Virus record (IMG/VR): IMGVR_UViG_3300014204_000112
Coordinates: 96,001 to 160,000 of that record
Source: a virus
Taxonomy: Duplodnaviria > Caudoviricetes
Direction: 5' to 3' (one strand)
Length of the DNA stretch: 64,000 nt
The position numbers and the translations under genes were made by a program. The notes beneath the pieces were generated by a model that saw nothing but the letters and a program-made list of their open reading frames with translations, did no database searches and had not been told where the DNA came from. Positions 16,457 to 47,009 of the stretch are shown here, piece after piece; positions within the stretch are counted from its first letter, which is position 1, and every line of letters begins with the position of its first letter.

Positions 16457-16556
16457 ATACTTCAGCTATTTACGGTTATTTATCCGAAGAAATTACCTTC
16501 TTCCGGATAAAATCCGTATAGCCTCGGTCATGTTGGTTAGCGGGTTGTTATGTGGC

Positions 16557-16790
16557 ATTAAGGGAGCATCGGTAATTCTAACCAGTGGGTTACTTCCTCA
16601 ATATTTCTACCACTTTCAGTCAACCAAAAAAACTGACCTTTATCTCGGTAGTCTAAACCATCTTCTAAATCATTCATTTCACAAACGTGCCATCTTCGTA
16701 TATCATACATTCCTTTATCAATTCCACTTACAAGTACATATTTACCATATTCAGGTAAATCTCTATATGTTTCAATTTTTTTGGTGTCAT
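16557..16790 (-). pseudogene. DUF551-like small gene with two apparent 1-nt deletions, inside a gene cassette
   Basis: Fragments LPEYGKYVLVSG... and ...VTHWLELPMLP* lie in different frames, with breaks at A-runs. Confidence 0.5.
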
Positions 16791-16800
16791 AATAATTTTA

Positions 16801-16925
16801 GCCACATAACAACGTGTATAAAACGTTGCCTTTCGTGGTCTTTTTTTAGTTTATACTAAATTTATAATTTTGTTCATTCTATTAAGTTCTATGTTGGCAA
16901 CGTTTCATACACGCAGCCGTTATAC
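16801..16925 (+). repeat. attC-like integron cassette recombination site
   Basis: CACATAAC...CGTGTATAAAACGTTGCC / GGCAACGTTTCATACACG...GTTATAC imperfect inverted repeat. Confidence 0.6.
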
Positions 16926-17138
16926 AACATTTATAAAATCCTCTATCCTTTGATTAACCCTCTTTAACTTTGAGTGATTTTCATCATTGTGATAAATCAA
17001 TTTTTTTCTACAATATTTTTCGTAGTTGCGTCCTCGTTCAGAGTTCATCCATTTTTCTTTTTGTAATAATCGTTCTTCGAGAATTGATTTTATTTGTTTT
17101 AAATCACTCAAAGTCATCGTTTCAATGTTTAATTCCAT
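16920..17138 (-). CDS. hypothetical cassette-borne protein (MELNIETMTL...)
   Basis: AT-rich ORF bounded by complementary GTTATACAAC / GTTGTATAAC cores. Confidence 0.6.
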   Translation of the reverse strand: MELNIETMTLSDLKQIKSILEERLLQKEKWMNSERGRNYEKYCRKKLIYHNDENHSKLKRVNQRIEDFINVV

Positions 17139-17149
17139 ATAAATAAAAC

Positions 17150-17245
17150 GTTGTATAACAAGGCATATATGTAATACCCTATTAAGGTTTGTACTATATT
17201 TTAAAGTTTCTGCATCAGGTACTGTATATATACCGACCGTTATAA
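17150..17245 (+). repeat. attC-like integron cassette recombination site
   Basis: TGTATAAC...GGCATATATGTAATACC / GGTACTGTATATATACC...GTTATAA. Confidence 0.6.
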
Positions 17246-17268
17246 GCAAGGCGGGAAGTTTTTCATAT

Positions 17269-38333: not shown

Positions 38334-38513
38334 CCGGCTAACTTTTTCTTCTTATACTATGGACAGAAACAAAAGTTAGTCGGCTGATCAAATTTACCGG
38401 ATGATTATGCAATGTTGGTTGCCGAAAGAGTTACTGCAACTGGAACAGCTGTGTAAGTAGGAGTGGTGAAAGTGTAAGGTCAGCCACCGAACCTGGGTGA
38501 TAAAAAAAATTTG

Positions 38514-38586
38514 AGAGTCCTGTGGGGCTCGAACCCACGACCACGGTTTTAGAGACCGCTGCTCTAACCACTAAAGCTAAGGACTC
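38514..38586 (-). tRNA. amber suppressor tRNA (anticodon CUA)
   Basis: GAGTCCT/AGGACTC acceptor; GCGGT-CTCTAAA-ACCGT; GTTCGAG T loop. Confidence 0.85.
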
Positions 38587-41178: not shown

Positions 41179-42351
41179 TTAGAACACCAGGGACGTTCTG
41201 AAATTACGGTGAACTGCTTCGGAGTCGGAGATCATTATGATGATGTCCTGATTGACTACTACCGGATCTCTTTCCGACGCTTTTTCTTCGGACGCTTTGT
41301 TAGCGGCAGCCGAACCTCTAGGCCTGCGTATTCTTTTTTTCTTTGCAAGTTCGAGATCAACGCCAAGCAGTTGAGCCTGGTAATGATTGAGGCCTTCTGA
41401 ATCGATTTTCACCTTGATGATGCGGTCGCCGAGGATGTCAATGATCTCTCCGATGTACTCGCTGTTAATGTAGAAGCTGTAACCTTCTTCGAATTCACAG
41501 TGAGGGCGGACTTTCACTGCTGTGAATATCGGCATAGCGGAAGTTTGCACTCCAGTATTTTCGTCGATGAGGAAAATATCGAACTTTTCAGAGATCTTAC
41601 GAACGTTGAACACGTCAGCAAAAGAATCGGGCTTCTGATTGTGAACGTTCACTTCTTGGCAGATCGTTTTCACGATGTCAACAGTGATCATTTCTAGAAG
41701 CGATATGAAACGAATGATGTCGTCAGTGTACTCCTTGCGAACCAGGCAATCGTTCACGATTTCCATGATTGCAGTAGTGCTGAGATCCTTGAAGGTTTTC
41801 AAGTAACGAATACGACCTGGCCTCTGTATGAGGTTCTCGTTGATGTACAACGAGTTGGTGGTCAGTATGAAAACTCTCTTGTGTTCTGAGTTCATTGCCC
41901 CGTCCATGATGGAAAGCAGGGTGTGATTTTCCTCGAAGATCTTTTCGTACTCGTCGATGAAGATGGTGATGTCTTGCGGAATGCTGTTTAGATAGTCCGC
42001 TCCGCCCTCAATGTACTTGCCCACAATGATGACCGGCAGATTGAGCTCGTTGCACATTACTTTGGCCGTGACGGTCTTTCCGGTTCCACGAGTTCCATTC
42101 ATGAGGATGCCGAGGTTTCCTGGAACTTCTGCAAACGTTCGTTTCACTCGCTGGATGAGATTTTCCTCGAGATCGTAAACTTTGTAATCGAAGGCGAATG
42201 AATCTGCGACTCTTGAAAGGTACATGTTACCCAGAGGATCGACTTCAAGCGTGAATACTTCGTTCGGCAGAATCTTGTGACTTACTCCAAAACTTCTAAG
42301 CCAGAATGTCTGATCGTTCTGAGCCCAAATCTTTCTTGATCTTTCTTCCAT
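41179..42351 (-). CDS. AAA+ ATPase
   Basis: GTRGTGKT, IFIDEYEK, LTTN, RPGRIRY. Confidence 0.85.
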   Translation of the reverse strand: MEERSRKIWAQNDQTFWLRSFGVSHKILPNEVFTLEVDPLGNMYLSRVADSFAFDYKVYDLEENLIQRVKRTFAEVPGNLGILMNGTRGTGKTVTAKVMCNELNLPVIIVGKYIEGGADYLNSIPQDITIFIDEYEKIFEENHTLLSIMDGAMNSEHKRVFILTTNSLYINENLIQRPGRIRYLKTFKDLSTTAIMEIVNDCLVRKEYTDDIIRFISLLEMITVDIVKTICQEVNVHNQKPDSFADVFNVRKISEKFDIFLIDENTGVQTSAMPIFTAVKVRPHCEFEEGYSFYINSEYIGEIIDILGDRIIKVKIDSEGLNHYQAQLLGVDLELAKKKRIRRPRGSAAANKASEEKASERDPVVVNQDIIIMISDSEAVHRNFRTSLVF

Positions 42352-42368
42352 TACTGTGATTTTATAGA

Positions 42369-42806
42369 TTAACGATTTGTGTGACCTGGAATGAATACAC
42401 CTCTACCAAGGTCGATGAATTGCAAGGTCTTTCCTGCGAAGGCAAGACCACGTACTTCGTCCGTGAACGATCCAGCGTATTCCGTTGAATGCGTTTTTAT
42501 CCAGCGCTTGTTCATGTGTTCGGCTCGATTGATCTTGATGTCTGGTGTATGATCAAGAACCGTTTCGTAAACAGTGATTGGCGTTCCATTCACAGATACT
42601 GCTTCGCCGACGTATTTCAGGTCGTCAATGTCAATATCGATTCCGGTTTCTTCCATCGTCTCGCGAACGCATGCTGCCTTTTTTGAAGTGTCTTCGGCGT
42701 CCACCTTTCCTCCTGCCAAGCACCAACCGAACGGATTCTTCGCTCTTAGTAAGAAGAGAGTTTCGCCCTTTTCGTTGATGATCCTGTTTACTACTGCGGT
42801 TTTCAT
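42369..42806 (-). CDS. NUDIX hydrolase
   Basis: GGKVD...ACVRETMEETG Nudix box. Confidence 0.85.
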   Translation of the reverse strand: MKTAVVNRIINEKGETLFLLRAKNPFGWCLAGGKVDAEDTSKKAACVRETMEETGIDIDIDDLKYVGEAVSVNGTPITVYETVLDHTPDIKINRAEHMNKRWIKTHSTEYAGSFTDEVRGLAFAGKTLQFIDLGRGVFIPGHTNR

Positions 42807-43057: not shown

Positions 43058-43399
43058 CTATACCACAAACGGTTGGTAATCGGTTTCCGTAACTCCACGA
43101 AGTTCTGCCAACATGTTCTGAGCTCCATTGTAGTTCCATGAGTGAATGATTACGATAGGCGGAGGGTTCTTCATTTTAGCAATGTGCTGAGCTACTTCGT
43201 AACCCGTGTTCTCACCGCTCTGTTGGTAAACCTTTCCTCCGAGATCATGGTCCAAGCTGGCCAAGTCGAACTTGATCTTTTTTAAGAGATCGATAGCTTC
43301 CTTGGCAGTTTCAGCTATGTGCAAGTCATGATTTGTTGCCCATCGTTTCTTTATAGCTTCGATGCGATTGTGATCATCGTCCAGGAAAAGTATTTTCAT
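43058..43399 (-). CDS. cyclic-phosphate-processing receiver domain protein
   Basis: ILFLDDD..R, SLDHDLG, TGYEV, IHSWN. Confidence 0.75.
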   Translation of the reverse strand: MKILFLDDDHNRIEAIKKRWATNHDLHIAETAKEAIDLLKKIKFDLASLDHDLGGKVYQQSGENTGYEVAQHIAKMKNPPPIVIIHSWNYNGAQNMLAELRGVTETDYQPFVV

Positions 43400-43413: not shown

Positions 43414-44093
43414 TTATTGTAACAGGTCTATCTTACCCTTTTGTACGTCCTTCCATCTGCACTGCTTGTTGGTAGAGTGATCCACCACCATTCCATCGAC
43501 TATTCTGTACGTCCTCTTCCTCAATCCCCTACCACTATCTCCGATCTGATCGTTACGGTGATTTCTAATTCTTTCGTCGTGCTTGCTAGTTGCAATCGAC
43601 TTCAGTTTCTCCTCTAACAATTTGTAAGCGAGTTCCTCGTTCTTATTTTGATCTCGAGTTTTTTCGCACCTTATTTGAATGTCAGTTGGAATGTGAGTTA
43701 GTCGAACGCAGCTAGAAACTTTATTGACATTCTGGCCACCCTTCCGCGACTGCGTGTGTATTGCTTATTGATACTATTCATGTCAAGTTTGAATGAAACC
43801 TGGTCATCGGGATTCATTATAGCAACCGTTACGAAACTTGTCTGTATTCTTCCGTTCTTCTCGGTTGGTGGGACTCGTATGAAGCACTGGGAACCGCTTT
43901 CGTTTGAGAAGAACTTGCCTGCGTCATAGCCTTGTATTCATATCGACATGAACCCATCCCTGAGTTCAGTTACTCTTCAATTGTAAGCTTGGTTCTTGCA
44001 CGCTCTGACGTAAATGTTAGTCAGGTCTTCCACTAAAAGTTTTGAGTCATTGCCTCCCTCTGAAGCTCTGATCTCGAGTTTAATCTGTTTCAT
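43414..44093 (-). CDS. prfA: class I peptide chain release factor, RF1-type; two in-frame UGA and one -1 frame break
   Basis: LEIRASEGG, RVPPTEKNGRIQTS (PxT), GGQNVNKVSSCVRLTHIPT, RDQNKN, KRTY; TGA at 43977-79 and 43938-40; frame break near 43741. Confidence 0.85.
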
Positions 44094-44529: not shown

Positions 44530-44657
44530 TTGGGAGAATGGGACAAGGGCTTTACGCCTCTCGGCGTTCGGCCGGACTTGAACCGGCGATCCATTGTGTT
44601 GCGAACAATTGCTTAAACCAACTAAGCTACGAAGTATCCCTACGCGTTGCTACCCAA
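44530..44657 (-). ncRNA. Y-RNA-like #2: helix on the acceptor side of a tRNA-like body
   Basis: UAGCAA..AGGGAUACUUCG / CCCU..AUUCUC (covarying); GGUUCAAGUCC T arm. Confidence 0.7.
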
Positions 44658-45380: not shown

Positions 45381-47009
45381 TTAGATTACGATCTTACGTA
45401 CCTTGTCCAGGTGGTATGTAGGATTGAATTCGACGTTGGCGATGTCGTCGAACATCGAGAAGCCGTAACCGTAGTAGAAACGGACCTTGTCACCGATCAG
45501 CTGAGTTGTGCCGTAGGATGCCAAGTCTACAGAGTAGACGTATGGGTTTCCGACGTTCCTCAGGTAGTTCGTGTACGAAGAGTACGTGTTTCCACGGTTG
45601 CATTCGTTGTCAGAGAGGATGAACACCCTGTCGTACGCCTTTCCGGAACGTGCTGCCAGATCCCAAGCGGTGCTTAGGTTGGTTCCACCAAGGTTAGCAT
45701 TGAACGACCTTGCGATCGAGAATACGTCCTGGTTTGCGTTCCATGGGGTGAAGTGAGCGCTCGATCCGAACTGAATAACGTCAGCATTGGTTGCCTTCGC
45801 GATTGTTGCTCCGATCAAGGATGCCTTGTCAGCACATGACGTTGAGTACTGAGTCTTCCTGTTAGGGTCGACCATCTTCGTGGTCATGGATCCGGACCTG
45901 TCGATGATAACGAGGTTCCTTCCTGGCAATGCTTCCGCAAGGTTTGGAACGGATGCTTCGTAACCGATCAACAGTGCCTGTGCGATCTTCCTTCCGTCCA
46001 TCTTCGAGCCGAATTCTGCGAGCAGAATTTCGCCGGCCATGTCGATCTGGTAAGGCATGATCTTTGCCTGCCTGATAAGGTTTGGGTCCGACAGAACTGC
46101 GCACAGCTTGTCAATCGTTGCACGATCGGAGACCGTGTTCAGAATGCTCCTGATGTTACGCAGAGCTGCAAGAGTACCGAGCTTACCTTCGGTCAACAGA
46201 GCTCCCCAGTTTTCAGCCTTAGCTTCCTTGAGGATTTCTGCACCTTCAGCCTTGGTGATCTTACCTGCCTTTACGGCCTTTGCAACTTCCTGACCTGCGT
46301 CAGAGTTAGCAACTTCCCAGGTGTCGGCGGATACAGCCAAGCCCTTGATAACGGCATCGATTGCAGATACCCTTTCGCCCTTGAATTCAACGAATGCCCT
46401 CGACTGCTTTGGGTCAGGGTGAACGAGGTTGATAACGTCGATCAATGCTGACTTGTACTTCAGGATCGAGTATGCGTCGAGCCTTTCGATTGCATCAGCA
46501 AAACCCTTCTTCATAGAGTTGGTTGCCTTCGTCTTGTTCATAACCGAGAAACAGGCGATGATTTCGGCCATGTCGTCCGGACGGAAAATGGTTCCACCAG
46601 ACTGGTTCTTCTTGTTCCACAGTGAGTAGAACCTCTTCGCCCATTCGAGACCAGCGCAGTAAGGAGCGAGGTAGCTTGCTGCGAGGTGGTTGATCGACCT
46701 CATACCTTCACCAACGCAACGTGAGTACACGATGCACTGTGCGGTTAGGTAAGGATCTTCCTTTGCACAGGCAGTAACGATTCCCTTGAGTTCCCTCATG
46801 GTTTCATTTTCTGACCTGTAGAACTGGTTTTCCAGCTTCAAGGTGTTGAGCATTGTGATCAGTCTCAACCACTTGTCGATCGCATAAGCCGCGTGGCCCG
46901 AACGATTGACAGTGTTAGGCGTAGGAACTGCGTTAGCAGCTACTAACTTCGCCTTAGGTGCCGTCTTGGCAAGCTTAGTACGAAGATTTGCGTTTCTGAA
47001 CTTTGTCAT
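45381..47009 (-). CDS. Ro60/Rsr-like TROVE-domain RNA-binding protein with C-terminal vWA domain
   Basis: TVNRSGHAAY, FYRSE, GMRS, RPDD, LVHP, AALRNIR, IDRSGSM, GGT, ILSDNE, VDLASYG. Confidence 0.85.
   Translation of the reverse strand: MTKFRNANLRTKLAKTAPKAKLVAANAVPTPNTVNRSGHAAYAIDKWLRLITMLNTLKLENQFYRSENETMRELKGIVTACAKEDPYLTAQCIVYSRCVGEGMRSINHLAASYLAPYCAGLEWAKRFYSLWNKKNQSGGTIFRPDDMAEIIACFSVMNKTKATNSMKKGFADAIERLDAYSILKYKSALIDVINLVHPDPKQSRAFVEFKGERVSAIDAVIKGLAVSADTWEVANSDAGQEVAKAVKAGKITKAEGAEILKEAKAENWGALLTEGKLGTLAALRNIRSILNTVSDRATIDKLCAVLSDPNLIRQAKIMPYQIDMAGEILLAEFGSKMDGRKIAQALLIGYEASVPNLAEALPGRNLVIIDRSGSMTTKMVDPNRKTQYSTSCADKASLIGATIAKATNADVIQFGSSAHFTPWNANQDVFSIARSFNANLGGTNLSTAWDLAARSGKAYDRVFILSDNECNRGNTYSSYTNYLRNVGNPYVYSVDLASYGTTQLIGDKVRFYYGYGFSMFDDIANVEFNPTYHLDKVRKIVI

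Follow-up and report, generated by a model that had tools for sequence, protein, structure and literature searches.

The reading that we moderately favour is that a family of short phage release factors is gated by leaky stop codons early in the reading frame, and that the copy described here inherited two such gates and was then inactivated. The window analysed is a stretch of 64,000 nucleotides, bases 96001–160000 of a 213,922-bp IMG/VR record that is estimated to be 83% complete and represents a jumbo phage. A first-pass annotation of this stretch had described a release-factor frame with two in-frame TGA codons followed by a PxT motif, and we located this frame on the minus strand, starting from the ATG at 44093. 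Its features are as follows.

43414–44093, minus strand: RF1-like class-I release factor gene without domain 1 (Pfam PCRF and RF-1; NCBIfam prfA scores above those of prfB and prfH).
44091–44093, minus strand: ATG start behind an A-rich leader with no Shine-Dalgarno (SD) sequence, by sequence inspection.
43977–43979, minus strand: in-frame TGA at codon 39, context AAT TGA AGA; same codon in L209 and LR756501.
43938–43940, minus strand: in-frame TGA at codon 52, context ATA TGA ATA; stop in the same column in 22 of 24 in-frame relatives.
43887–43889, minus strand: codon 69, CAG (Gln); aligned with the His of G-x-H-R in 46 of 48 relatives.
43863–43871, minus strand: PPT tripeptide, a codon-recognition motif of the PxT type, from the sequence.
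43739–43745, minus strand: frame break, GGAAGGG compared with GGGAAGGG in L209, from comparison with relatives.
43732–43740, minus strand: GGQ catalytic motif (GGT GGC CAG), out of frame with the start.
43681–43683, minus strand: codon 138, GAC (Asp); aligned with the Gly of P-T-G-I in 46 of 48 relatives.
43414–43416, minus strand: TAA terminal stop.

With both TGAs, which lie 13 codons apart, read as sense and one base restored at the break, the gene comprises 226 codons. The two halves of the gene match Pfam PCRF (E 1e-16, profile positions 100–194 of 194) and RF-1 (E 9e-22), and the frame thus reflects real homology and not chance. No other gene with an RF-1 domain was found in the 214-kb record. 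Because a tRNA-Pro gene ends 58 nt upstream of the release-factor gene, there is no domain-1 exon at this locus.

Both in-frame stops were conserved in two intact relatives. The gene from the 735-kb phage LR756501 (70% nucleotide identity over the gene) runs in one frame without a break and has TGA at codons 39 and 52, and the local contexts, AAT TGA AGA GTA and ATA TGA ATA, are the same as in the window. The syntenic metagenome contig L209 (79% nucleotide identity), the one useful close relative recovered by a metagenome scan, also carries both TGAs and has its GGQ region in one frame. When the N-terminal half was used as a query against viral contigs, no match was found. An HMM was built from five intact relatives and used to score three-frame translations of 79 IMG/VR loci, with duplicates removed. 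This left 24 genes of the in-frame type, and 22 of them have a stop in column 52 (TGA in 20 and TAG in two). Additional gates were present among these 24 genes at column 44 (TGA, five genes), column 39 (TGA, two genes) and column 38 (TAG, one gene), and only one of the 24 is without any gate. The first-pass annotation had linked the TGAs to regulation by recoding, a view that sense codons at these positions in relatives would have contradicted; such codons were sought, and stops were found instead in L209, in LR756501 and in the 22 genes just described.

Purifying selection downstream of the TGAs, which it had named as a check, was likewise seen. For the window copy compared with L209, dN/dS was 0.08 overall, with values of 0.045 for codons 1–38, 0.27 for codons 40–51 and 0.155 for codons 53–116, and dS was near 1. 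The parts before, between and after the TGAs are all kept as coding sequence, with purifying selection in every segment. The same TGA codons in relatives whose synonymous sites are saturated, together with this selection, show that the TGAs do not result from decay; on such comparative evidence they are ancestral, conserved recoding sites and not random damage. The residues found where these columns carry sense codons differ in type, being aromatic or hydrophobic at column 39 (Y and F, with W in Escherichia coli RF1) and K, R or Q at column 52, so that the alignment points to no single residue as the one inserted at UGA.

The class of the factor was assigned from NCBIfam models. The intact relatives scored 161–185 bits on the two prfA models, 90–128 bits on prfB and 53–81 bits on prfH; the family is thus best on RF1 models, yet under both the prfA equivalog cut-offs (400 and 423) and the PrfH cut-off (TIGR03072, 166.65). 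Matches start only at about profile position 100–113, and those of intact relatives to the prfA models at about position 105, beyond the N-terminal domain 1. By these profile matches, the family is one of RF1-like class-I release factors from which domain 1 is absent. Across 48 relatives, the three positions of the tripeptide are occupied by P in 44, P in 46 and T in 45, and GGQ is present in all 48; in four relatives (L053, L054, L075 and L080), SPT replaces PPT. We also compared the residues that form the decoding pocket of Thermus thermophilus RF1 (Q181, I192, H193 and T194). The position of Q181 is occupied by I in the window copy and by V, I or Q in relatives, and the position of H193, an otherwise universal residue, is occupied by Q in this clade and mostly by Q across the family. 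The first-pass annotation had taken PxT as the mark of RF1, the factor for UAA and UAG. The RF1-like character is supported by the NCBIfam scores, but the rule itself is weaker here, given the departures in the pocket (Q181 to I/V and H193 to Q). If the factor is of the RF1 type, as PPT suggests, it would read UAA and UAG and not UGA; the pocket residues indicate that the stop-codon specificity of the family may be altered or broadened.

The window copy carries, in addition to the gates, a break in its frame. We confirmed the earlier observation that GGQ can be reached only via a −1 change, and placed this change within GGAAGGG (43745–43739). It corresponds to the loss of one nucleotide in a run of three identical bases just before GGQ, and it is unique to the window copy among 49 distinct family members, the others reading SRG-K-GGQ in one frame. 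The unshifted frame past the break ends 14 codons later, without GGQ. A programmed −1 frameshift at 43745–43739 was rejected: there is no slippery heptamer at this site, the break is absent from all relatives and these read through the region in one frame. Two near-invariant residues, each conserved in 46 of 48 relatives, are also changed in the window copy (H69Q and G138D). With LR756501 as the outgroup, non-synonymous and synonymous changes number 19 and 19 on the branch leading to the window copy and 11 and 33 on that leading to L209 (p 0.023). Mosaic ancestry confounds this test, since identity to relatives is about 90% before the middle of the gene and about 77% after it. The replacements specific to the window copy are mostly conservative, so that any relaxation of selection would be recent.

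Parts of the gene have been lost in the nearest relatives. In the syntenic relative L003, a clean deletion has removed 334 nt from within the gene (window 44039–43706; L003:2996–3000), whereas in L006 and L007 only the last 68 codons are left, next to a contig end. From these losses, the release-factor gene is evidently dispensable in this lineage. As a separate observation, the identity of L003 to the window falls from ~90% to ~77% past the middle of the gene, a pattern suggestive of a recombination breakpoint within it.

An alternative reading, which we regard as unlikely although it is the strongest of the rivals, holds that the gates are real and that the window copy is intact and functional, with the missing base an assembly or sequencing error and with H69Q and G138D tolerated. 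The position of the missing base in a three-base homopolymer run makes an assembly error possible, the corrected frame is open for all 226 codons, and both the conservative nature of the replacements and the dN/dS relative to L209 fit a working gene. The record nevertheless gives no sign of frequent indels, open reading frames under table 11 covering 0.9–1.0 of most of its length. In addition, the break is accompanied by two replacements of near-invariant residues, and the gene losses in the nearest relatives point to a gene that can be dispensed with in this lineage. The window copy was most likely inactivated recently, an assembly error being the less probable of the two accounts, and this phage probably produces none of the factor.

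The gates themselves share a distinctive local context. Over the 49 distinct genes, the gate codons are TGA (49) and TAG (seven), and TAA does not occur among them, whereas the terminal stops of the same genes are TAA in 42, TGA in five and TAG in two. The base following the in-frame gates is A (18) or C (14) in 32 out of 32 instances, never T or G; the genuine TGA stops of the phage genome, in comparison, are followed by T in 10 of 20 instances (Fisher p 1e-5). Where the codon after the gate encodes leucine, it is CTA or CTG in 13 out of 13 cases, whereas TTA and TTG make up 57% of the leucine codons in the same loci. A U at the +4 position is a strong-termination context in bacteria (PMC5289835). 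The gates therefore lie in a weak termination context, with TGA or TAG but never TAA and never T at +4. Their ranking, with TGA ahead of TAG and TAA absent, follows the order of leakiness and not the presumed specificity of the factor, which argues for leaky stops read by ordinary tRNAs. No conserved RNA structure was found by RNAalifold at the codon-52 gate in a consensus over 23 sequences.

A sister clade achieves the interruption by different means. In this group of 24 distinct GC-richer genes, which read M-x-x-E-I-R-A-A-E-G-G, the frame is closed by a stop at column 38 (CTT TGA in 20 and CTT TAG in four) and continues in the +1 frame. Most of these genes carry GGAGG ahead of the CTT-TGA/TAG site, separated from it by a 3-nt spacer. 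The site falls within one codon of the codon-39 TGA, and the prfB-type cassette of this clade is placed in domain 2 of an RF1-like protein. In the window, neither context (AAT TGA AGA or ATA TGA ATA) is that of a prfB-type +1 shift, and homology continues in frame after both stops. The frameshift genes have SD sequences before their starts, whereas the in-frame genes have A-rich leaders and no SD, which suggests a link between the type of gate and SD usage. In Bacteroidota, prfB frameshifting is put at ~7% and occurs without SD pairing (PMC10798248). The AT-rich locus L056 (1501–2176) changes to the +1 frame at CTT TAG C in column 52, without SD, where its relatives have an in-frame TGA; column 52 is thus one position with two kinds of gate.

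We also considered bypass by other routes, either a +6 hop at codon 52, in which peptidyl-tRNA-Ile would leave AUA, skip the UGA and land on the following AUA, or termination followed by re-initiation to give two polypeptides that assemble. The flanks of codon 52 are identical or synonymous Ile codons here (ATA TGA ATA) and in several relatives, and the gate is in every case followed by an ATN or CTR codon, a set that includes near-cognate starts. Most relatives, however, have mismatched flanks (ATT TGA CTG and ATC TGA CTA), and codon 39 lies in AAT TGA AGA; hopping is thus not general. In the sister clade, frameshifting joins the two corresponding parts, which argues for a single polypeptide, and the gates fall at three columns (39, 44 and 52), inside a conserved region that aligns with RF1 domain 2. 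These routes are accordingly improbable by comparison with read-through.

The genetic code of the phage bears on how the gates could be passed. Among the 153 non-overlapping long ORFs of the whole record, 114 end in TAA, 20 in TGA and 19 in TAG, in agreement with the earlier statement that other genes here use TGA as a normal stop. ORF cover under table 11, counted from stop-to-stop ORFs of at least 120 codons, is 0.9–1.0 in most 10-kb bins of the record, and in the loci of relatives the neighbours of the release-factor gene end in TGA, often as tight ATGA overlaps. The phage genome is on the standard code, and genome-wide reassignment of TGA or TAG was ruled out by ORF cover and stop usage. 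A search for same-frame ORF pairs split by TGA elsewhere gave a few weak candidates without a pattern. ARAGORN identified 42 tRNA genes in the record, all of them within the window; none has a UCA anticodon, as the first-pass annotation had also reported, and the additional tRNA-like element recognised by Rfam has a GCA loop. The tRNA arrays of four relatives (66, 47, 27 and 6 tRNAs) likewise yielded no tRNA(UCA), so that none was found among about 190 phage tRNAs from five genomes. With the standard code and no suppressor tRNA, the in-frame gates would be passable only by near-cognate read-through. At the 11:24 position, examined for a Hirsh-type feature, the phage tRNA-Trp has a C-G pair.

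It is very improbable, in our estimation, that TGA is read as sense in the cell concerned, through a host with code 4 or 25 or a suppressor tRNA that was missed, and that the gene is an ordinary open frame. In the alignment, position 39 faces aromatic residues (Y and F, and W in E. coli RF1), as would fit TGA read as Trp, and unusual phage tRNAs can escape tRNA finders. TGA nevertheless ends 20 of the 153 long ORFs and many tightly packed neighbours in the relatives, coding density under table 11 is high throughout the genome, and none of the roughly 190 phage tRNAs is a tRNA(UCA). Moreover, TAG stands at the same gate in some relatives, and SD-less genomes of 100–735 kb would be a poor fit to the known TGA-recoded hosts. 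Least credible is a plain pseudogene with the TGAs as inactivating nonsense mutations: three disruptions within 680 bases and the deletions in relatives might suggest it, but the same codons are TGA in diverged relatives with saturated synonymous sites, a stop at codon 52, with the remainder of the frame open, is shared by 22 of 24 relatives and all segments are under purifying selection, which refutes it for both TGAs.

Taken with the read-through reading that we prefer for the in-frame genes, these results suggest the following mechanism. Only those ribosomes that evade termination at the gate, or at both gates, would complete the full-length factor. In the AT-rich, SD-less lineage, the gates would be the in-frame UGAs at codons 39 and 52, passed by near-cognate read-through, and the reading tRNA would be tRNA-Trp by analogy with E. 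coli and phage Q-beta. The yield would increase when UGA termination by host RF2 is slow, with RF2 scarce or busy. In GC-richer relatives, a prfB-type +1 frameshift at nearly the same codon would have the same outcome. An RF1-type factor would then relieve a shortage of termination capacity, in a phage genome where 75% of long ORFs end in TAA. In the window copy, both gates would have been inherited, after which one base was lost before GGQ and two near-invariant residues were changed.

The first-pass annotation had held that the factor is made only when host UGA termination is weak. For the family, gating by weak UGA termination remains the best reading of the sequences, but in this phage the product is probably not made. 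The gate is somewhat more likely to be a sensor of termination capacity than a plain damper of expression. Against gating, ribosomes would have to pass two UGAs in succession, and very little product would be expected unless RF2 is limiting; against self-sensing, an RF1-type factor would sense host RF2 and not its own level, unlike prfB, and the benefit to the phage is a matter of inference. More tentatively, we propose as a plausible extension that bypass is near-obligatory in the family, by read-through with SD-less (Bacteroidota-like) hosts and by a prfB-like +1 shift with SD-using hosts, that it constitutes an independently evolved sensor of termination capacity and that the specificity of the factor may be non-canonical (Q181 to I/V, H193 to Q and, in some members, SPT). 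The phage itself has an SD-like 4-mer before only 5 of 167 genes and leaders that are 47% A; this near-absence of SD combined with A-rich leaders is the pattern of Bacteroidota and their phages and suggests such a host.

The closest parallel is bacterial prfB, which encodes RF2 and contains an SD-like element, a 3-nt spacer and CUU UGA C. In both systems a full-length product needs bypass of an early in-frame UGA, with a yield that is set by the speed of stop recognition, and the sister clade uses the identical cassette GGAGG-N3-CTT-TGA. The window gene differs in that the downstream part lies in the same frame and would be reached by read-through, not by a frameshift, with neither CUU nor SD, and in that it has two gates in series, sited in domain 2 and not in domain 1. 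It is also phage-encoded and RF1-like with PxT, and is probably blind to the gating UGA, which would make the arrangement one of cross-sensing and not of autoregulation. Phage genes of this kind are not mentioned in surveys of prfB frameshifting and release-factor evolution (PMC12421855, PMC10798248, PMC6514570), and our search of the literature on phage release factors with recoding returned no description of stop-gated short phage release factors.

In phage Q-beta, programmed UGA read-through extends the coat protein to A1, with Trp inserted by tRNA-Trp. As in the case proposed here, a leaky UGA in a phage gene is read at low frequency by a normal tRNA in a standard-code host to give a longer product. 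The short and long products of Q-beta are both functional, whereas the 38- or 51-residue products of the window gene would probably be useless, and the gate here sits in the gene of a translation factor. Recoded phages (Lak, Agate and Jade) encode RF1 and RF2, tied to genome-wide recoding of TAG or TGA; the code-change genes of Jade are said to be in standard code, and no in-frame stop is reported for the factors of these phages (10.1101/2021.08.26.457843). They resemble the present case in having class-I release factors in large, tRNA-rich phages, some with suppressor tRNAs, but the phage of the window is not recoded and its factor is without domain 1.

PrfH (RF-H), which is paired with RtcB2, likewise has no N-terminal domain 1 and comprises about 200–230 residues, and the window gene, like PrfH, lies in a neighbourhood with an RNA-repair flavour (cREC_REC, Nudix and Ro60/TROVE). 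The window family, however, reaches only 53–81 bits against the cut-off of 166.65, scores better on RF1 and retains PxT. Identity with PrfH was rejected on the TIGR03072 cut-off and on the absence of RtcB from the 214-kb record, and no conserved gene neighbourhood of the PrfH-RtcB kind was present in distant relatives.

RF2, autoregulated by the prfB frameshift, is the classic example of a translation factor whose activity is sensed by the factor itself through recoding. The present data would add a second, RF1-like viral release-factor family that arose independently, with a read-through gate in one clade and a frameshift at almost the same codon in the other. If this is true, stop-codon gating is a recurrent solution for dosing termination factors, the in-frame gates are natural bacterial read-through cassettes and the role of a domain-1-less factor in infection by tRNA-rich jumbo phages deserves attention. 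Gene callers split or discard such genes, so that phage translation repertoires are under-counted. The window copy also documents the loss of the gene within one lineage.

The immediate neighbours of the release-factor gene were assigned by domain matches.

43058–43399, 42369–42806, 41179–42351 and 45381–47009, minus strand: neighbours of the release-factor gene, by domain matches.

One flank carries genes for a cREC_REC protein (cyclic-phosphate processing receiver), a Nudix hydrolase and an AAA ATPase, and the opposite flank a gene for a Ro60/TROVE-vWA protein, which gives the neighbourhood an RNA-damage-response flavour. The tRNA-like element at 44567–44633 (minus strand) scored 45.8 bits with the Rfam tRNA model, matching model positions 4–67 only, without a full acceptor stem; the element with the GCA anticodon loop, it was not called by ARAGORN and is probably one of the Y-RNA-like elements of the first-pass annotation.

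The window also contains an intact tRNA with a CUA (amber suppressor) anticodon at 38513–38586 (minus strand). The genome that carries it closes 19 of its 153 long ORFs with TAG, and the anticodon arm of this tRNA is similar to that of the phage tRNA-Trp. Among relatives, a tRNA with this anticodon is present in G004, which has a UGA-gated factor, and absent in G005 (IMGVR_UViG_3300037087_000760, loci L194–L199), a 211-kb relative classed as a provirus. The latter has at least 66 tRNA genes, including one with an 8-nt anticodon loop (gcca in ARAGORN) and one reported with a two-base anticodon. The first-pass annotation had cited 1-nt A deletions at 16.6–16.8 kb as a sign of assembly errors. 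In L210 (G006), the only close relative that extends over this region, window 16540–17259 is replaced by an ORF of about 245 codons that is unrelated and whose predicted product begins with a hydrophobic stretch resembling a signal peptide; on this comparison, the segment is a variable slot and not a homologous gene with frameshifts.
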